A stretch of DNA of 19,720 nt from a virus. The DNA is taken from the UHGV virus genome UHGV-0194792; one strand, given 5' to 3'. A program made the translations under genes and the position numbers. The notes under the pieces were generated by a model. That model saw nothing but the letters and a program-made list of their open reading frames with translations. It was not told where the DNA came from and searched no databases. This document shows, in pieces, positions 6,586 to 19,720 of this stretch; position 1 is the stretch's first letter; every line of letters begins with the position of its first letter.

Positions 6586-7914
6586 ATGACGTGGAAAGAC
6601 AGACTTCAGGACGCGTCATTTCGCGGTGTGCCGTTTAAGGTTGAAGAAGAAAGTGCGGGAACCGGTCGTCGTGTGGAAACGCACGAATACCCGAACCGCG
6701 ACAAACCCTATACCGAAGACCTGGGGAAAATCACTTTCCGCCCGTCCATCACAGCTTATGTGGTGGGAGATGACTGCTTTGACCAGCGCGATCGCCTGAT
6801 TGACGCGCTGAATAAACCCGGTCCCGGCACGCTTGTCCATCCGACTTACGGTGAGCTGAAAGTCTGTGTTGACGGGGAAGTTCGGGTCAGCACATCGAAG
6901 AGTGAAGGGCGTATTGTCCGCTTTGACCTGAAGTTTGTCGAAGCGGGAGAACTCTCTTACCCCACTTCAGGTGCGGCGACGGCGCAGACGCTGATGTCAT
7001 CCTGTTCTGCACTGGATGACTGCATCAGTGACAGCTTCAGTGGTTTCAGTATCGATGGCGTGGCAGATTTTGTGCAGAACGACGTCGTCGGTAATGCCAG
7101 CACAATGCTTGGGTATGTTTCTGATGCGATGAAAGTGGTGGATTCTGCCGTATCGGATGCCGCCAGGCTGTTGCAGGGGGATATCTCGGTACTTCTGCCG
7201 CCGCCATCGTCAGGCAAAAATTTCGTTGAGCAGGTGCAGAAAATGTGGCGTACCGGGAAACGCCTTTATGGTAACGCCAGCGACCTGGTCACCATGATCA
7301 AAACGCTTTCCGGTGTCAGCCTCGGCAGCGATCTGCAACCGCGCGGCGTCTGGAAAACGGACAGTAAAACCACCGCCACGGCGACGCAGCAGCGTAACGT
7401 GGTTGCCAGCACCCTTCGTACGGCCGCAATCAGCGAAGCGGCGTATGCCGTCACCCGATTGCCTGCGCCAACAACTTCCGCGGTGATGCAGAATGCCGCA
7501 GTGGGGCAGGCAACAACACCCGCGCAGAGCACTGGCTGGCCTTCCGTCACGCATCCGGCACTGAACAATGCACCGGCGGTGAAAAGCACGGTTGACCTGC
7601 CGACGTGGGAAGAACTGACTGACATTCGCGACACACTGAATACGGCAATTGATAAGGAGTTGTCCCGAACAACCAGTGATGCGCTGTTTCTGGCGCTGCG
7701 CCGGGTGAAAGCAGATCTGAATGCGGATATCAACACGCGCCTTGAACAGTCTGCACGGATCATTCAGCGCACGCCGGATGAGGTTTTACCCGCGCTGGTG
7801 CTGGCGGCGACCTGGTTTGATAACGCGGCGCGTGACGCGGACATTATCCGGCGTAATGCCATTACGCATCCCGGCTTTGTGCCGGTGATCCCTCTGAAGG
7901 TGCCAGTGCAATGA
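6586..7914 (+). CDS. DNA circulation protein (Mu gpN / gp43-like tail protein)
   Basis: The track ORF begins at 6544, but ATG at 6586 has a GGAG RBS 8 nt upstream and gives an N-terminus (MTWKDRLQDASFRGVPF) resembling Mu N-family proteins as I recall them. Position after the tape measure gene matches the Mu order. Confidence 0.65.
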   Translation: MTWKDRLQDASFRGVPFKVEEESAGTGRRVETHEYPNRDKPYTEDLGKITFRPSITAYVVGDDCFDQRDRLIDALNKPGPGTLVHPTYGELKVCVDGEVRVSTSKSEGRIVRFDLKFVEAGELSYPTSGAATAQTLMSSCSALDDCISDSFSGFSIDGVADFVQNDVVGNASTMLGYVSDAMKVVDSAVSDAARLLQGDISVLLPPPSSGKNFVEQVQKMWRTGKRLYGNASDLVTMIKTLSGVSLGSDLQPRGVWKTDSKTTATATQQRNVVASTLRTAAISEAAYAVTRLPAPTTSAVMQNAAVGQATTPAQSTGWPSVTHPALNNAPAVKSTVDLPTWEELTDIRDTLNTAIDKELSRTTSDALFLALRRVKADLNADINTRLEQSARIIQRTPDEVLPALVLAATWFDNAARDADIIRRNAITHPGFVPVIPLKVPVQ

Positions 7915-11586: not shown

Positions 11587-12357
11587 ATGCATCGTATAGA
11601 CACGAAAACCGCGCAGAAGGATAAGTTCGGCGCGGGTAAGAACGGTTTTACCCGTGGTAACCCCCAGACCGGCACGCCTGCCACCGATCTGGATGATGAC
11701 TACTTTGACATGTTGCAGGAAGAGCTTTGTGGCGTGGTGGAGGCATCCGGTGCCAGCCTGGAGAAGGGGAGGCACGACCAGCTGCTTACCGCGCTTCGTG
11801 CGCTGCTGTTAAGCCGCAAGAATCCGTTTGGCGATATCAAATCGGATGGCACCGTGAAAACAGCTCTCGAAAACCTTGGTTTGGGAGAAGGCTCTGCATT
11901 ACCTGTTGGTGTGCCTGTTCCATGGCCTTCAGCCACACCGCCAACAGGCTGGCTGAAATGCAACGGTGCGGCTTTTTCTGCTGAAGAATACCCGGAACTG
12001 GCAAAGGCTTATCCGACAAATAAATTGCCTGATTTACGTGGTGAGTTTATTCGTGGCTGGGATGACGGGCGCGGTATTGATGCAGGACGTGTTTTATTGA
12101 GCATTCAGACAGGGATGCTGGAAAAACACCGCCATATTGTTGTTGCCAATGATGGTTACGACACAAAAGATGAATGGGAACTGGCTACGATTTTCAAAAA
12201 GACATACACACAAGGACGGGGACTTGATGCCGCAAATACAGGAGGGAGTCTGATCCCATCACCGACACTTCATTCACGAGGGAGTATCGGTAATACTGGC
12301 GGGAGGGAAACCCGTCCACGAAATATTGCATTTAACTATATCGTGAGGGCTGCATAA
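11587..12357 (+). CDS. tail fibre protein: constant N-terminus fused to the currently expressed variable C-terminal cassette
   Basis: 256-aa ORF with GGAG RBS. The C-terminal part carries an [12 protein letters not shown] collar-like motif. A hix/gix-like crossover site lies inside the gene at 11864-11889, so codons after about 11877 belong to the invertible segment. Confidence 0.8.
11864..11889. other. invertase crossover site, left (hix/gix-like, 12-2-12: CTCTCGAAAACC TT GGTTTGGGAGAA)
   Basis: Imperfect palindrome with an AAACC-NN-GGTTT core resembling hixL/gix as I recall them. 15 bp (11876-11890) are a perfect inverted repeat of 13731-13745. Confidence 0.7.
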
Positions 12358-13392: not shown

Positions 13393-13745
13393 TTAACAGC
13401 CTAACGCTAAAAATGAAGCGCCGAGGCCAGGAGTACTGGCTCTGGATATAAATTTAACCGGGTCGGGACTAAAACCTGCACAGGCAATATAACCAACAGC
13501 CCCGCTATCTGGTGTATAGTCTTGTGAGACCAAAACACGCAGACATCTGTTTGGAAATGCAATTGGGAAATGGGTTACTACATCCTGTGCAATGCCTGGA
13601 GCGCCGATTGAGCCCCACTGAAGAATAAAACCTGATGGTAATTTTTGATATCCAGTACCTGAAACAGAAAGCGTGAAGCTACCCATATCAGGTATCTGAT
13701 TCGCCCCTGTCCCTACATTCCTTTTAGCCGCTTCTCCCAAACCAA
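13393..13745 (-). CDS. promoterless alternative tail-fibre C-terminal cassette
   Basis: The minus-strand frame is continuous with the crossover site: after inversion, ...ENL of the constant part joins [13 protein letters not shown]... in frame. Contains an ILQWGS motif typical of fibre tips. The 13 codons upstream of the site in the track ORF are not expected to be translated. Confidence 0.65.
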
Positions 13746-13757
13746 CGTTTATGAAAA
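13732..13757. other. invertase crossover site, right (hix/gix-like: TTCTCCCAAACC AA CGTTTATGAAAA)
   Basis: Inverted copy of the left site with the same central dinucleotide on the opposite strand. Lies about 55 bp upstream of the invertase start. Confidence 0.7.
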
Positions 13758-13811: not shown

Positions 13812-14366
13812 ATGCTTATTGGCTATGTACGCGTATCAACAAATGACCAGAACACAGATCTACAACGTAATGCGCTGAACTGTGCAGGATGCGAGCTGAT
13901 TTTTGAAGACAAGATAAGCGGCACAAAGTCCGAAAGGCCGGGACTGAAAAAACTGCTCAGGACATTATCGGCAGGTGACACTCTGGTTGTCTGGAAGCTG
14001 GATCGGCTGGGGCGTAGTATGCGGCATCTTGTCGTGTTGGTGGAGGAGTTGCGCGAACGAGGCATCAACTTTCGTAGTCTGACGGATTCAATTGATACCA
14101 GCACACCAATGGGGCGTTTTTTCTTTCATGTGATGGGTGCCCTGGCTGAAATGGAGCGTGAACTGATTGTTGAACGAACAAAAGCTGGACTGGAAGCTGC
14201 TCGCGCACAGGGACGAATTGGTGGACGTCGTCCCAAACTTACACCAGAACAATGGGCGCAGGCCGGACGATTAATTGCAGCAGGAATTCCTCGCCAGAAG
14301 GTGGCGATCATCTATGATGTTGGTGTATCGACACTGTATAAGAAGTTTCCGGTCGGAGATAAATGA
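13812..14366 (+). CDS. serine DNA invertase (Gin/Pin/Hin/Cin family)
   Basis: The N-terminus MLIGYVRVSTNDQNTDLQRNAL with catalytic Ser in VRVST, and blocks such as GDTLVVWKLDRLGRSM and MGRFFFHVMGALAEMERELI, match my recollection of Gin/Pin. ATG at 13812 with a GGGGGA RBS is preferred over the track start at 13776. A C-terminal helix-turn-helix region is present. Confidence 0.9.
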   Translation: MLIGYVRVSTNDQNTDLQRNALNCAGCELIFEDKISGTKSERPGLKKLLRTLSAGDTLVVWKLDRLGRSMRHLVVLVEELRERGINFRSLTDSIDTSTPMGRFFFHVMGALAEMERELIVERTKAGLEAARAQGRIGGRRPKLTPEQWAQAGRLIAAGIPRQKVAIIYDVGVSTLYKKFPVGDK

Positions 14367-14541
14367 AACCGCAGGCTCGTCGTATGCAAGAAAGTGCTGC
14401 GGCTGGCTGGCCAGCTTCTGATAGTGCGAATATTGAATGATTTCCAGCCGTTATCGATTTTACATATTTTTGTATGAGAGGATTTTTACCTCCTCCCACC
14501 TATCCTCCATGACTTTACGCCACTGTCTCTAGGGCTGCTAT

Positions 14542-14556
14542 GTGCCAGAAGCGGAC
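14542..14556 (+). repeat. direct repeat copy 1 (GTGCCAGAAGCGGAC; extended imperfect match about 14531-14570)
   Basis: 15-bp perfect core read directly. The second copy is at 15595-15609. The two copies bracket the HEPN-like gene. Confidence 0.6.
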
Positions 14557-14604
14557 TTCATTAGATTCTTTGTTTTTTGTGTTAATATACTTACAATCCC
14601 ATCA

Positions 14605-15420
14605 TCAACTAACAACCCAATCATCAGATAATATATCACTGATATTGAAAATATAGGTATGGTTATTTTTACCATCTGAAATGACGATTTTTTTTAAGTT
14701 GAATCTTTCTGATATGATATGCGTTGCAAATTGTGGGATTATTAAAAACAAAGCCTCTACCTTACTGATTAATTCAATGTTGACTTTAGGTCTGAAGTTT
14801 GCATCATGAACCACTTTGTGCCTAATGTAAAATGCTTCCTCTATGAGGGCTCTCCAGTCTGGAAATATATTTTCTATCGATAAATCTTGGGAAATTTGGC
14901 CACTCAGACCGCAAGGAGATATATTAGTTGTACATATGTAGTTTAAAAAACTCTCACCCCACATGCCATTATATGCTTCTTCAAGGTCGTTTAAGTTTTG
15001 AAAGTTAAAGCTTTTACTCAATAACTCTGATAGATTTATCTCAGTGTTTATATTGATAGATGTTTCTGTTCTCATTTTAGATAGTAGTGTTGTAATTCTA
15101 GATTCATCAACTGAATGCACGAAAACAAAAACGTCTCTAAAATATGTTTCCCAGCAACTGATTAGAAATACAAAATATTGTCGATATGCTGTTTTATAAA
15201 TATCTATTTTCTTATCTTTCGTTGAAATAAGTGAATGCATAAGTCGACAATTTTCTGCAAAATTTAGTAGGAAAGACATTGAGAAGTCTTCTATAGCTCC
15301 TCTTGATTCGCGAAGAGATAGCAATTCATCAATAATTTTTTTATTGATTTTCCTAATCTTTTTCAATTGCATGCCTCGTTTTTGCTTAAGTAAAGTTGAT
15401 TTTGGAGTTTCGTCAATCAT
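14605..15420 (-). CDS. hypothetical protein with R-x4-H (HEPN-like) motif; possible Abi-type effector
   Basis: 271-aa ORF in a visibly AT-rich segment, rich in Lys/Ile/Asn. Motif RHKVVH at about residue 205 fits the HEPN signature R-[NHQ]-x3-H. The start is uncertain: 15420 has a weak RBS, and an alternative ATG is at 15372. Confidence 0.5.
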   Translation of the reverse strand: MIDETPKSTLLKQKRGMQLKKIRKINKKIIDELLSLRESRGAIEDFSMSFLLNFAENCRLMHSLISTKDKKIDIYKTAYRQYFVFLISCWETYFRDVFVFVHSVDESRITTLLSKMRTETSININTEINLSELLSKSFNFQNLNDLEEAYNGMWGESFLNYICTTNISPCGLSGQISQDLSIENIFPDWRALIEEAFYIRHKVVHDANFRPKVNIELISKVEALFLIIPQFATHIISERFNLKKIVISDGKNNHTYIFNISDILSDDWVVS

Positions 15421-15594
15421 GTTATCTTATTAGATTTAAAGATAAAGTAACTTTTTGCATAAGCTTTGCGACAAAGATAGCTTTAATGAAAGGCCTTATA
15501 GAGCTACTTGGCCATAAAAATTTTTACGATGAATTCGAATTCAGCGTCCGCTCCTCGCTTAAAGCTGTCCTTGGGCCTAACCTACGATAGCTTC

Positions 15595-15609
15595 GTGCCA
15601 GAAGCGGAC
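15595..15609 (+). repeat. direct repeat copy 2 (GTGCCAGAAGCGGAC)
   Basis: Identical 15-mer to 14542-14556. Flanking bases are partly conserved (GCTnnGTGCCAGAAGCGGAC...TAnGAT). Confidence 0.6.
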
Positions 15610-15896
15610 ATTACTAAGATAGTAACGTATCAAACGGTGGGACAAGTCATGCCAAGTGCGGAAGTGGCTAACAACCATCTGTGTTGTTTAACGGGGAACA
15701 GGTCATTCCATTGACCCGATCATTTATGTTGCGCTGACGCTTAGGTGATAAAAAGCCGCCTATGCCCGTCTATCTTTGGGGATCCGCAATGAAGTTGATT
15801 GTGAGGTTATTAGGCTGGGTCTTCTCATTTATAAGTTGTTGAAGTAGCAACGAATTATCGAGCGATTTATCCCGATTAAATGTCTCACTATTACTC

Positions 15897-17021
15897 TTAA
15901 TCGGTAAATTCATAGTTTGGCCGCATTGAGAAACGCCACAGAGGCAGGCCTCCCCCTTTGTAATCATCAGGGATGGTTACCGTGAAAAGTCTGACATTCT
16001 GCCGGGTGTCAACTGACCTGATCTGGCTGTCGTGTACAGTCTGCTCGTTAAAGGCCGACGTGACCAGCGAACTCAGCGTACCTATAAAGTCGAAACCCTG
16101 TCTTTTGTAATTTTCGTCGTCTTCCGGGGAAAATGTGTATCGGATGCTCTCAAGCTGACCATCAGTGAATATTGCCTCCGATCCGGGGCAGAGCCACTCT
16201 CCGTAGCGCATCAGATGAAACGCCGTGTTCATTTCAAATTTATCCGTTACTTGTCTGTCATTGCAGTAAATTTTAATCTCGCCAATTGTAAAATGGGCGA
16301 TGCCTTCGGGACTAACTGAAACTTCTTTGGTCCGGTCGGGGATAAGCTCAAAAACCAGATCGGGTTCTGTTGCTATCGATAGGTCGCCCAGCAGGTACAT
16401 CTCACTTTTTGCGAGCGCCGAGGCCTGCGTCAAGGTATGTTCACGCTCTAGCTCCTTCATTGAGGAGCGTGCAACCAGCGCCCACCGGCGCAGCATCCTG
16501 ATGTAGATGGCATAATAAACTGGAATACCATGGAGCTCACCGTACTTTTCAACCTTATCACTGTACGATTTCTTCAGGCGATAATCGTCAGCCACGTCAT
16601 CCGCGTTAAAGTTTTTTACTTCCACAAAGATCTGACGGCGATCCTTCAGTATAATGCGATAGTCAGGTGCCACCAGATCGGGATCGGCTGACATCAAGTC
16701 TCCGGCGTCTTCCTGTTTAAGAAACTGGCAGTGGTTCAGTGCGGCGCAAACGTGTTTAAATAGGTTTTCTATTCTTTTCCCGTTCAGCAGAATTGGATTC
16801 TGATGGGAAGCGATTAATGACGTGGTGACCTTTTGTATAAAGTCATCCTGGTGCTCGGGGTTTTTAATATCGTAATTATAGATCTGGCCCAACGAGGAAA
16901 AAAGCTCAAAGGCTTCAAATCGTTCGGGATTCCTCTTGATTCTTTCCATTAATGACTCCGCAGCTAATAAATACAACGAAATGAGATCACTTGTTTCTCT
17001 GAAGTTACCTGAAAACTGCAT
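15897..17021 (-). CDS. hypothetical protein with PD-(D/E)xK nuclease-like motif
   Basis: 374-aa ORF. The segment APDYRIILKDRRQIFVEVK carries PD followed 13 residues later by E-V-K, as in restriction-endonuclease-fold active sites. It lies 70 bp downstream of and co-directional with the FRG-like gene. Confidence 0.5.
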   Translation of the reverse strand: MQFSGNFRETSDLISLYLLAAESLMERIKRNPERFEAFELFSSLGQIYNYDIKNPEHQDDFIQKVTTSLIASHQNPILLNGKRIENLFKHVCAALNHCQFLKQEDAGDLMSADPDLVAPDYRIILKDRRQIFVEVKNFNADDVADDYRLKKSYSDKVEKYGELHGIPVYYAIYIRMLRRWALVARSSMKELEREHTLTQASALAKSEMYLLGDLSIATEPDLVFELIPDRTKEVSVSPEGIAHFTIGEIKIYCNDRQVTDKFEMNTAFHLMRYGEWLCPGSEAIFTDGQLESIRYTFSPEDDENYKRQGFDFIGTLSSLVTSAFNEQTVHDSQIRSVDTRQNVRLFTVTIPDDYKGGGLPLWRFSMRPNYEFTD

Positions 17022-17090
17022 TCTGCACGGCGATTAAAGCGGCTATGGGCCCACGCTGGCACACAGGCGTGCCGTGCGACTAAAGCGCTA

Positions 17091-18461
17091 TCAGATTCGT
17101 CCATCGTATAGTTTTGCAATTTCCGTAGCAGCCTTCTCAATGCCGGGGTACACCGTGCTTTCGTTAATGCCAAGGCGGCTCAGTTGCTGCATCAGATGCT
17201 CTTTGTTTCTAATAACAAGCTTTTTGATGTTCAGCGTACTGAGTCCCGTTTCCGGTAGGTCTACGTTTTCACCAAAGAGCAGGAAAGCGCCTGATTGGGA
17301 CGAAATACGTGCGTTACTGAGCCGACCTTTGACCACAACAATTTTACTTAGGTGGACCGGATCGATGATGCTTTTGAAATAGGACTTTTCATCGCGGATC
17401 AGGTGTAGTAGTTGTCCGCACTCTTCAGATTCGTTAAACGCCGGAATGGTGAGATTAGTTTTCAGGCTGCTTTTGAAACGAGAGGGAAGACGGGAAAGAT
17501 TGGCTATGCAACTTACGGTATCCGAGTCGAAAAACTTAATTTCACTTTTGGGCGTCGTCAGAATAATGACGTTCCCGTCAATTTCATGATTATTTTCATC
17601 GTGCTTGATTTTAGAGCAGGCAAAATATAGTGCGATCAAGGGGTTTGTTGATACATCAAGCAGGCGTGTGGGTAGGCCATAGTGTTGCATGCGCACGAGT
17701 TTATCTAGCATATACCGATCGTCTTTGAACTCGGCGGGCTGCACGGTCAGCAGCTCTGTTATCATGTCCGATTCGTGATGGCGGTAGCGATAGTTACCCT
17801 GAGTATCCTTGCGGAACAGTGAGGGTTCCAGTTGGTAGTTGATGTCCGAGTGACCGCGGTAAAATACCTCTTCATCGTTTCCCTGTGTATGATCGAGTAT
17901 CACCTGCAAGTACTGATTGATATTCGCAATGATCTCTAGTTCTTCATTATTCTCCGGTGCTTCCGCACTCGCTGCTGCGGGCTCAACATTAGAATAGCCT
18001 TCAAGGCCTAAAACACGCAGAATCTCATTTACGGAAATCTCTTTGACCGCCCAGAACGTTCTGTTTAGTCCGAAACTGCCCAGCTCCAGCTCACTTACGT
18101 ACTCTTTATCGCTGGTTAAAGGCTTGTAGCCGATATCACTGGTAATCTCATAATCAAACGCTAAAACTTTTTCTCTGTTATACACGGACGTACTTATCTT
18201 GCTGATTTTTCCTAAGCGGATGTGGCTGAAATAACCTATTTTTTCATTATCTTCATCGAATTCAATTTCCGGCTCGGACATAAATACAACGGGCAGTTCC
18301 TGAAGAAAATGATAGGTTTTTTCAGTCAGGGGAAGCAATCTGCTTCTAAGAGACTCTGGCGTGGATTCGAAGAGTCGCGACACAGGGAAAGAGTCATTGC
18401 CACTGGGTTCAGAAAAAAAAGTGTAGTATTTGGGGGTTCCGACAACGATAAGATTCAGCAT
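17091..18461 (-). CDS. FRG-domain-like protein with N- and C-terminal extensions
   Basis: 456-aa ORF with GAGGA RBS 8 nt upstream. Central blocks FYRGHSDINYQLEPSLFR and QHYGLPTRLLDVSTNPLIALYFA match my recollection of the Pfam FRG-domain signature. About 185 residues precede the domain. Confidence 0.55.
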   Translation of the reverse strand: MLNLIVVGTPKYYTFFSEPSGNDSFPVSRLFESTPESLRSRLLPLTEKTYHFLQELPVVFMSEPEIEFDEDNEKIGYFSHIRLGKISKISTSVYNREKVLAFDYEITSDIGYKPLTSDKEYVSELELGSFGLNRTFWAVKEISVNEILRVLGLEGYSNVEPAAASAEAPENNEELEIIANINQYLQVILDHTQGNDEEVFYRGHSDINYQLEPSLFRKDTQGNYRYRHHESDMITELLTVQPAEFKDDRYMLDKLVRMQHYGLPTRLLDVSTNPLIALYFACSKIKHDENNHEIDGNVIILTTPKSEIKFFDSDTVSCIANLSRLPSRFKSSLKTNLTIPAFNESEECGQLLHLIRDEKSYFKSIIDPVHLSKIVVVKGRLSNARISSQSGAFLLFGENVDLPETGLSTLNIKKLVIRNKEHLMQQLSRLGINESTVYPGIEKAATEIAKLYDGRI

Positions 18462-19000
18462 ACTTGCGATCCTCGCATAAGTTAAGTTTCTCTCTCATCA
18501 TGCCAGACTTGATAATTATTTAAACATCAGCGCTGCTATTTATATTTCACACCTTTTTGAGCCGAAACGACACTGCCATCGGTAAGCCCGGATGATACAT
18601 TCTGAAAATTCATCAGAAAAATTTACATCACGCTTTACTCCTGACGTATATCAGCACTAACGTGCCATTGCGCACGCGCTAGCTATTTAGTAGCGCGTTT
18701 CGGCGAAAAGAGATTCGGTAGTCAATGACTATATTTCGCTCATAACAGACATTCACTACAGTTGTGGCAGAAAGGTATGCATGCTGGGTGTGGGGAAGTC
18801 GTGAAAGAAAAGAAGACTGCAGTGCCGTTTGTCGTTACGTTTATCTTCATTGGCTATGCAAGTCGTAATACAAGGTGGGACAAAACTGAGACATATAAGG
18901 CCTCGCAATGGCTTGCAAGGCTTTACATGTTTTGATGTGGTGGGACGTGTGAGCGCAGTGTTGATGGGGTAATGCTTTGAATTAGAAGCGGATTCTTATA

Positions 19001-19046
19001 ATTCGTAATGCGAAGGTCGTAGGTTCGACTCCTATTATCGGCACCA
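19001..19046 (+). other. thrW: prophage attachment-site repeat (attR): 3' 46 nt of a tRNA-Thr gene, including T-arm and CCA end
   Basis: ATTCGTAATGCGAAGGTCGTAGGTTCGACTCCTATTATCGGCACCA matches the 3' part of E. coli tRNA-Thr (CGU) as I recall it, with a canonical GGTTCGACTCC T-arm. No matching 5' half is present upstream, so this is a partial copy and not a gene. Confidence 0.65.
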
Positions 19047-19643
19047 TTTAAATCAATAAGTTATCTCACATTTAAGTAAACTACGTTCTCCTCTTGTGCC
19101 TTTGATTTTGCTCGCGTGCGCGGTGAAATGCCTGACTGAAAGGTGAGCATATCGACGAACCATTTCGAGAGTTTCCCATCTGCTCATTTTTAAGTGCAAG
19201 CAGGAAAACACCGGACTAAACCAATCAGCTGTTCGAAAATGGCAAGCGGATTAATATGCCATGGCGGGGCAGCTTTGAGCCGCACGCATGGGGTGTGGCA
19301 AGCCTGATGGATTTTGCTGTGCCTGTGGTGGCGTGTTTGCTGGTTTGGCTGTTGGTTAAACGCGAAAGTCATAATGCCAGGGGAATACCGCAGGGTGTTC
19401 AGGTTTTGCATAAAAAAGCCCACCATTAAGGTGGGCAAAAGGAATGATTTATATTCTCTGAGAGAAACATTACATTTCTCCTTGTCACTTCTAACATAAA
19501 AATATGGAGAAATAATGGAGCTTATATTAATTGGCGATTAGGTAACCATGTGGTTATACAAAACAATACAGTTCTTTACATTTGCCTTGTTTTATGAATA
19601 CTCCTGAAGAGGTGTACAACATAATTAAACAAACAGGGTAAAT

Positions 19644-19720
19644 ATGAATATATTTGAACAAACTCCACCGAACCGCAGACGTTATGGTCTTGCTGCATTC
19701 ATTGGGCTGATTGCTGGCGT
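19644..19720 (+). CDS. yagU: chromosomal flank: N-terminus of a YagU-like inner membrane protein (3' end outside window)
   Basis: [25 protein letters not shown] matches my recollection of the E. coli YagU N-terminus. AGGG RBS upstream. The partial ORF runs off the window end. Confidence 0.45.

Follow-up and report, generated by a model that had tools for sequence, protein, structure and literature searches.

The window, by which we mean the whole 19,720-nucleotide stretch of viral DNA analysed here, includes a tail-fibre module that closes with the serine invertase gene pinE (13812-14366, plus strand), which RefSeq annotates in the ECONIH1 region of 100% identity and which we regard as context, not cargo. 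The invertible fibre segment is flanked by an inverted repeat (11871-11890 and 13731-13750). Between the end of pinE at 14366 and the start of attR at 19001 lie three cargo genes, g3, g2 and g1, all on the minus strand, as a preliminary description of this DNA had indicated. The attR site (19001-19048, plus strand) exactly repeats the last 48 nt at the 3' end of the tRNA-Thr gene thrW, and thrW adjoins the prophage integrase at the opposite end of the prophage. The AT-richness of this island, formerly judged by eye, is evident in the computed GC contents of 42.7% for the island and 54.8% for the structural genes, and none of the three products proved to be a structural, lysis or integration protein. 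The non-coding stretch from the FRG gene (g3) to attR (18462-19000) contains no open reading frame with homologues and presumably includes the FRG gene promoter. A promoter and terminator scan yielded no more sites than shuffled sequence, an Rfam scan of 14200-19720 at E<=1 gave zero matches, an NCBIfam search returned no useful match, and a PHROGs search matched g3 only.

A survey of 5426 complete E. coli genomes found the trio in only 28, consistent with the earlier view that the genes are non-core cargo in a moron slot. The copies are always at least 99% identical in nucleotide sequence and share the same gene order. They occupy three prophage contexts (the myovirus-type prophage of the window at thrW, a lambdoid prophage at bioA-ybhB, and a lambdoid prophage at thrW/yagU), and phage PhiR11_1 also carries the trio in unchanged order; the literature searched on PhiR11 held nothing relevant. 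Such constant company might be taken to mean that all three genes form one three-component defence system, but because the copies are all at least 99% identical they amount to a single module of recent origin and give no independent evidence of co-occurrence.

The middle gene, g2 (15897-16949, minus strand), encodes a 350-residue protein and starts at an ATG (16949) that has a GGAG ribosome-binding site 7 nt in front of it. A Hjc/RecU-like PD-(D/E)xK nuclease domain (residues ~50-165) is followed by an uncharacterised conserved C-terminal domain (~170-350); all 37 sequences compared share the catalytic-motif residues E80, P95-D96 and E110-V-K112, and the predicted structure contains a restriction-endonuclease-like alpha-beta-beta-beta-alpha-beta core. 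A search of PDB sequences with the g2 profile found no meaningful match. The protein is 99.7% identical to WP_001703029.1 (the annotation carried by loci L027 and L028), and its N-terminal 74 residues are identical to those printed in the DefensePredictor supplement. Judged by sequence, g2 is the same protein as DS-31 ('RED7', WP_001703029.1), with no material difference, and DS-31, a single-gene PD-(D/E)xK system, has the same neighbours on its ECOR source contig. DS-31 comes from DefensePredictor (Science 2026, PMC13092281), where WP_001703029.1, cloned as a single gene together with the promoter region native to it, is marked as defensive in E. coli (Tables S6 and S7). Its log10 protection was 6.3 against Bas19, 5.7 against Bas25, 3.8 against Bas21 and 4.3 against Bas69, although the effect on Bas19, Bas21 and Bas25 calls for caution, since DS-19 and DS-38 likewise strongly block these phages (PMC13092281). 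The main text gives no mechanism for DS-31 (PMC13092281); expressed alone, DS-31 blocks several phages, and we suggest that it does so by cutting phage DNA, with the C-terminal domain perhaps supplying target or trigger recognition.

The relationship between g2 and the FRG gene is more intricate. Wherever g2 is at least 82% identical, an FRG gene lies directly upstream on the same strand with a spacing of ~130-145 nt, the informative loci being the window and L020, L021, L022, L033, L034, L035, L038 and L039. These linked loci include prophages and CP4-like islands in different genera, FRG identity among them falls to 73%, and the FRG-g2 intergenic region is alignable in all of them. Both the fixed arrangement and the alignable spacer would suit a cooperating two-gene system confined to one clade, with the HEPN gene (g1) an unrelated neighbour; the FRG protein might sense or prime while the nuclease executes, or the two might form mutually tuned layers. 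We nevertheless consider such cooperation rather unlikely, since DS-31 protects alone (PMC13092281), and the more distant g2 homologues (no more than 67% identical, ~15 loci) never have FRG or HEPN neighbours. FRG genes without a partner are also present in two phages, the P2-like P22H1 and Tritos, and beside Hachiman in E. coli islands; intact FRG alleles without g2 are nested in the tree among the g2-linked alleles, and in Pectobacterium g2 is retained beside an IS-truncated FRG remnant. The FRG family is moreover far larger: 2735 of its proteins reach E<=1e-10 among 8000 scored candidates, versus 43 for g2. Just 3' of the FRG stop codon the sequence and an alignment of nine loci reveal a hairpin (17058-17073, minus strand) that is preserved by compensatory changes in relatives, possibly serving as a terminator or stabiliser between g3 and g2, and the conserved hairpin together with the separate ribosome-binding site of g2 likewise argues against a two-gene system. 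Within one enterobacterial clade FRG and DS-31 move as a joint cassette, yet either is also retained without its partner.

The FRG gene itself, g3 (17091-18461, minus strand), encodes a 456-residue protein with a beta-rich N-terminal domain (residues 1 to ~155) containing the motif RTHWAVK, an FRG domain (198-289) and a conserved C-terminal extension to residue 452. In the profile and PADLOC searches proposed in the preliminary description this protein matches Pfam FRG (PF08867) with 79.2 bits (E=4.7e-22; cut-off 25), its residues 171-452 match PADLOC PDC-S15 with 328.7 bits (E=8e-99), and the match to phrog_4962 is full-length. By profile match g3 belongs to PDC-S15, which is a candidate class and which the literature searched mentions only in two genome surveys; no relevant paper emerged from literature searches pairing FRG with either defence or EVE. 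The best PDC-S15 models begin at residue ~171 and therefore leave uncovered the N-terminal domain, which is the hallmark of the 450-residue subfamily to which g3 belongs. Residues R202-G-H204, S214, R217, Q259-H260 and S388-Q389 are invariant in the family.

In the predicted model the N-terminal domain of g3 has a fold that is weakly PUA/EVE/YTH-like, with PUA-superfamily readers as its best structural matches. A Foldseek search of the g3 model against the PDB found nothing significant, neither the g3 profile nor the N-terminal domain had a meaningful match among PDB sequences, and residues 1-170 matched nothing in Pfam at E<=10, so that the domain has no PUA sequence-profile membership. Other proteins carry this domain joined to TIR domains of several kinds, TIR being an established NADase fold. 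Examples are P0250, P0257, P0262 and P0267, in which it is joined to a TIR domain matching the PADLOC classes PDC-S35, PDC-S66 or bSEFIR, and R29, E32, E63, G84, R134, T135, W137 and K140 are invariant between g3 and the TIR proteins. Where those candidates have TIR as their effector, g3 has FRG, a domain of only predicted activity. The occurrence of this domain on TIR proteins therefore suggests a sensor joined to a NAD-consuming effector. The N-terminal PUA/EVE/YTH-like domain would then control an FRG effector, with a putative ADP-ribosyltransferase (ART) fold, that uses up NAD+ or attaches ADP-ribose to a target. We advance only tentatively the bolder proposal that g3 is an autonomous anti-phage protein of a new mechanistic type, in which a PUA-like sensor, perhaps on recognising a modified base or a nucleic-acid feature of the phage, activates the FRG effector with its putative ART fold, which then depletes NAD+ or ADP-ribosylates nucleic acid, and that it is kept beside DS-31 in a two-layer cassette. 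If true, a function would thereby be assigned for the first time to the widespread FRG domain.

The third gene, g1 (14605-15420, minus strand), is annotated as encoding 271 residues, the start shared by the family being M17 (15372), which gives 255 residues, and its product is a RiboL-PSP-type HEPN protein and predicted RNase. Its match to Pfam PF18735 (26.4 bits, E=7.8e-6) falls below the gathering cut-off of 28.4; its homologues form 71 clusters, mostly with a precomputed PF18735 match. The R-x4-H motif R184-HKVV-H189 and residues D190, N192 and R194 (255-residue numbering) are invariant in 32 g1-family sequences, and the three signatures originally recognised by inspection (FRG-like, PD-(D/E)xK and R-x4-H) are all upheld. 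The family profile had no match among PDB sequences. Across eight genomic contexts the HEPN family has no conserved partner gene; six of these contexts are prophage hotspots or defence islands, ThsB lies beside the homologue in only two, and an HTH_3 gene lies upstream in one locus only. One HEPN homologue is placed between housekeeping genes.

Several assignments of g1 to known systems were considered and rejected. Thoeris came into question because HEPN homologues adjoin ThsB genes, but it requires ThsB and ThsA, and the island contains no TIR, SIR2, Macro or SLOG domain. A NAD-processing partner was entertained in view of such neighbours in three of the first contexts, but four further contexts contained no neighbouring TIR, deoxyribosyltransferase or FRG enzyme. 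A toxin-antitoxin module is discounted by the lack of a conserved small partner beside g1, g2 or g3 across contexts, and the validated HEPN systems DS-29 and DS-38 are unrelated to g1 in sequence. The abortive-infection protein HepS of Gifsy-1 (Nature 2026, PMC13043305) exemplifies a solo HEPN protein that is able both to sense and to kill (PMC13043305). Like HepS, g1 is encoded by a prophage, keeps its R-x4-H motif intact and stands alone, lacking any partner or antitoxin gene, but the two belong to different HEPN families; there is no sequence match, and the motif lies at residues 100-105 in HepS and at ~184-189 of 255 in g1, so g1 is not a HepS homologue. Also comparable are PD-T4-2B and the AbiD-AbiF-like RiboL-PSP HEPN proteins, the similarity to PD-T4-2B spanning only ~15% of the protein. 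By analogy, g1 may be a stand-alone HEPN RNase from the RiboL-PSP/AbiD-F-like branch that is kept inactive until infection and would then cleave RNA and cause abortive infection in the manner of HepS.

The HEPN gene constitutes a separate 1.05-kb insert flanked by a direct repeat, D1, that a repeat search located at 14537-14563 (the pin-proximal copy and right-hand boundary of the HEPN cassette) and at 15590-15616 (the left-hand boundary), with an exact 15-nt core, GTGCCAGAAGCGGAC, at 14542-14556. Two copies of D1 are present in every trio locus and one in loci without the HEPN gene, and in a Kluyvera FRG+DS-31 locus homology to the window ends exactly at 15590. The linker that closes the tail-fibre/pin module (14367-14541; ~190 nt) is conserved across many prophages, with matches in 399 of the 5426 E. 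coli genomes; the majority of these matches stop at query position ~190, corresponding to window 14556, and homology in other genomes breaks off within the repeat core 14542-14556, with variable cargo beyond. In related prophages the same slot contains SMODS+SLATT, another HEPN protein, GIY-YIG or Hachiman, a variability that the preliminary description had proposed to look for. These boundaries bear directly on the three-component reading. Eight FRG+g2 loci (FRG identity 73-98%) lack the HEPN gene, and it is bracketed by a repeat that marks module junctions elsewhere, has a GC content of 31% versus 45-48% for the other two genes, and has homologues with other neighbours, and DS-31 works alone (PMC13092281). 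With separable genes, differing composition, and gaps of 141 nt (g3-g2) and 476 nt (g2-g1), the single system envisaged in the preliminary description is not sustained, and we regard it as highly improbable.

The most probable account is that the 4.6 kb is a small defence island of three autonomous, separately acquired single-gene modules, situated in the variable region close to attR of a temperate E. coli prophage integrated at thrW, with the HEPN gene having joined FRG+DS-31 later, between two copies of the 15-27-nt boundary repeat. The observations behind it are the gene content, separability, folds, insertion boundaries and the DS-31 phenotype (from PMC13092281). The suspicion of a defence locus thus holds insofar as the variable slot contains defence cargo, but not as one undescribed three-gene system, since g2 is the validated DS-31, g3 falls in PDC-S15, and the g1 gene was already among the predicted defence genes of the DefensePredictor paper (PMC13092281). 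The biochemical activities of the modules, their triggers, and a defence role for g1 and for g3 we infer. Either or both of g1 and g3 could instead be selfish addiction or toxin-like genes, or serve the prophage life cycle or host physiology, given that the literature searched offered no phenotype for them, that PDC-S15 is a candidate class, and that a HEPN homologue is flanked by housekeeping genes. We think this improbable, since both families recur in the P2 old/tin and Z/fun hotspots and beside Hachiman, Thoeris, Gabija, MmeI and Shedu, the DefensePredictor log-odds for g1 is 10.35, the predicted catalytic residues of both proteins are invariant, and the FRG N-terminal domain is common to TIR proteins matching PADLOC candidates.

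Read as three stacked modules, the locus illustrates how a temperate phage may assemble its defence repertoire, with single-gene modules accumulating at a conserved boundary beside att and moving as blocks between unrelated prophages. One module, DS-31, is validated, and g1 and g3 are strong candidates. The FRG protein is a useful new lead, belonging to a large family present in classic hotspots, and the N-terminal domain common to g3 and TIR proteins provides a concrete sensor/NAD-effector model. The linker and its 15-nt core could help to locate cargo slots in other prophages.

Two comparisons with known systems provide a wider context. The best structural matches of the g3 N-terminal domain are the PUA-superfamily reader domains of modification-dependent (type IV) restriction enzymes (EVE-HNH VcaM4I, McrB N-domains and MspJI), and in these enzymes a reader is followed by an effector, as in the architecture proposed for g3. 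The position of the island recalls e14 pin-mcrA and the P2 old/tin and Z/fun loci, in which variable defence genes likewise lie between a tail-fibre or invertase module and att, and the P2 hotspots house homologues of g3 and g1. The slot described here differs from those of e14 and P2 in that it is bounded by a conserved ~190-nt linker ending in a 15-nt core, and in that the same core also flanks the HEPN cassette.

The island (14367-19000) belongs to a complete temperate E. coli prophage, annotated in the record of ECONIH1, which, with two other genomes, is 100% identical to the window from 14367 to 19720, the flank to the right of the island included. According to that annotation, the head is of HK97 type and the tail is contractile and Mu/SfV-like, the tail-fibre segment is Pin-invertible and accompanied by pinE, and on the left the integrase adjoins tRNA-Thr thrW. 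A 20-nt inverted repeat (95% complementary, 11871-11890 and 13731-13750) surrounds the alternative tail-fibre/Tfa genes beside pinE and probably represents the crossover sites of this host-range segment. Sequence comparison shows that 19001-19048 is an exact copy of the 3'-terminal 48 nt of thrW and is therefore attR; ARAGORN reports no whole tRNA in the window. Past attR, ECONIH1 carries a degenerate, frameshifted integrase fragment (19061-19215) followed by yagU. The DNA immediately after attR again resembles thrW-downstream sequence before entering that fragment; 19049-19215 is a relic of an older element integrated at the same tRNA, and two elements thus formerly lay there in tandem.

The preliminary description of an AT-rich island with three genes on the opposite strand is borne out. 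GC content is 0.427, compared with 0.548 in the structural part, and lies below that of every structural window of equal length (minimum 0.522). All three open reading frames are on the minus strand: a solo RiboL-PSP-type HEPN gene (14605-15420), the PD-(D/E)xK nuclease gene DS-31 (15897-17021) and an FRG-domain gene (17091-18461). They differ in composition (GC 0.311, 0.476 and 0.452, respectively) and are separated by gaps of 476 nt and 141 nt. Family alignment places the true start of DS-31 at 16949, giving 350 aa with a GGAG 7 nt upstream, and that of the HEPN gene probably at 15372.

A linker of about 190 nt after pinE (14367-14556) is found in 399 of 5426 E. coli genomes, behind the pin or Tfa genes of various prophages. 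The cargo beyond it varies from genome to genome, and includes SMODS plus SLATT, a 310-aa HEPN protein, DUF3800 and others, a protein of 1083 aa, and GIY-YIG with FRG and Hachiman. Comparing the same slot across related prophages, as had been proposed, thus reveals variable cargo in which the three genes are not core. Most linker matches stop at 14556, within the exact 15-nt core, GTGCCAGAAGCGGAC, of a 27-nt direct repeat (14537-14563 and 15590-15616) that brackets the HEPN gene. The core appears to serve cargo exchange as a recombination site or module boundary, because homology to other prophages ends there. Two copies are present in every locus carrying all three genes and one in loci lacking the HEPN gene, and the homology of a Kluyvera FRG and DS-31 locus to the window ends exactly at 15590. 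No recombinase is present within the 1.05-kb HEPN cassette.

The HEPN gene product matches Pfam RiboL-PSP-HEPN just below threshold (E=7.8e-6). The domain is present in most of its 71 homologue clusters, and the R-x4-H motif noted previously proves invariant in the family alignment, together with the D, N and R that come after it. A review of HEPN proteins regards the RiboL-PSP branch as a distant relative of AbiD/AbiF that probably targets mRNA. The protein is WP_021572745.1 (5323-6138 on the ECOR contig encoding DS-31), which has a DefensePredictor log-odds of 10.35 and is absent from the tested list (PMC13092281). Six of eight contexts of the family are prophage hotspots or defence islands, among them the P2 Z/fun slot, Thoeris, Gabija with MmeI, and Shedu with NACHT, and no partner gene is common to all eight. 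In Proteus (locus L015, 6001-8296) and the unrelated Parashewanella (L014, 5012-7433), homologues of 55-58% identity directly precede ThsB-type TIR genes, and in an Enterobacter P2 prophage (L013) a homologue adjoins a deoxyribosyltransferase-like gene; since four further contexts lack such neighbours, these adjacencies may be mere defence-island clustering. Some genomes (L028 and L029, 6934-7815) have the gene annotated with 293 aa instead of 271 aa, and there the nucleotide match is one base short (815 nt versus 816 nt), pointing to a C-terminus that is frameshifted in those alleles.

The PD-(D/E)xK motif of the middle gene was correctly recognized, but the gene is not undescribed. Its product is 99.7% identical to WP_001703029.1, an accession that two E. 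coli loci with all three genes carry in their annotation. This 350-aa protein (ECOR contig 6615-7667, working name RED7) was scored defensive and named DS-31, with residues 56-182 assigned to PD-(D/E)xK/RecU and log10 protection of 6.3 against Bas19, 5.7 against Bas25, 3.8 against Bas21 and 4.3 against Bas69 (DefensePredictor, Science 2026, PMC13092281 and supplement). The FRG gene, 141 nt away, falls outside the DS-31 unit because that study applied a 30-bp rule. No more than a few kilobases from DS-31 homologues in three unrelated elements are umuDC-like genes (Peptidase_S24 and IMS polymerase; L021 9943-11205, L006 6064-7766, L009 3249-4945), probably shared mobile-element cargo rather than a functional link.

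The HEPN and DS-31 genes are present in 28 of the 5426 complete E. coli genomes, always with the FRG gene and always at 99% nucleotide identity or more; the trio is thus one recent module and gives no independent signal of co-occurrence. Its carriers are phage PhiR11_1 and prophages of three contexts: the myovirus-type one of the window, integrated at thrW, and lambdoid ones at bioA-ybhB and thrW/yagU. In every case the fibre module lies on one side of it and the att end on the other. More distant comparisons split the trio into separable genes, which argues against a single three-gene system: eight loci (FRG identity 73-98%) have FRG and DS-31 without HEPN, all of the approximately 15 loci with DS-31 homologues of 67% identity or less lack FRG (including Morganella, Aeromonas, Serratia, Dickeya, Dehalococcoidia and metagenome contigs), and FRG occurs alone in phages.

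FRG and DS-31 are more closely associated. Among loci with DS-31 at 82% identity or more for which the sequence extends upstream, FRG stands about 130-145 nt ahead of it in nine lineages, with FRG identity as low as 73%; in the sole exception, Pectobacterium, the last FRG codons remain beside DS-31, adjoining an IS. A hairpin, GGCAC-N6-GTGCC (17058-17073), lies 17 nt past the FRG stop codon; in an alignment of nine loci, compensatory changes such as GGCAAAC/GTTTGCC and GGCATAC/GTATGCC maintain it in relatives, and it may be a terminator or RNA-stabilising element between the genes. E. coli FRG alleles of 76-80% nucleotide identity occur without DS-31, two of them adjoining Hachiman, and because DS-31-less alleles are nested among linked ones in the FRG tree, DS-31 was lost at least twice with FRG intact. 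Cooperation of the two proteins appears unlikely, and we read the pair as a long-lived two-gene cassette with autonomous parts.

The island is therefore a genuine prophage defence cargo region of stacked separable modules, and the proposal of a candidate undescribed anti-phage locus stands as to defence cargo but not as to novelty, DS-31 being validated, FRG/PDC-S15 a catalogued candidate and the solo HEPN already predicted. Its interest lies in the boundary sequence and in a sensor-effector model for the 456-aa FRG protein, its chief new lead. The suggested FRG-like domain is confirmed by Pfam FRG (E=4.7e-22, residues 198-289) and PADLOC PDC-S15 (E=8.4e-99, residues 171-452), and a phrog_4962 match spans the full length. 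Phage Tritos and P2-like phage P22H1, the latter in its old/tin slot, carry full-length relatives by themselves; the literature searched contained no experimental test of any FRG protein. In PhiR11_1 (L005, 734-1962) the island is 99.6% identical apart from an IS2 copy immediately ahead of the FRG gene, and this copy may alter FRG expression. Foldseek with the AF2 model (pLDDT 84) lists some PUA-superfamily-type folds, none significant, and no sequence-profile support was found, so that a PUA-like N-domain is proposed only tentatively. An exhaustive phmmer search of 1.84 billion representatives, queried with residues 1-170, recovers only 36 clusters, which beyond FRG proteins comprise 284-320-aa proteins fusing this N-domain to four kinds of TIR (CAP12/PycTIR-like, ThsB-like, bSEFIR and CBASS-effector-like), with R29, E32, E63, G84, R134, T135, W137 and K140 invariant throughout. 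A domain exchanged between FRG and TIR effectors would be a sensor-like module, and this exchange would place FRG, by position, as an NAD-consuming effector, consistent with the prediction that Frg is an ART/NADase (PMC9503650).
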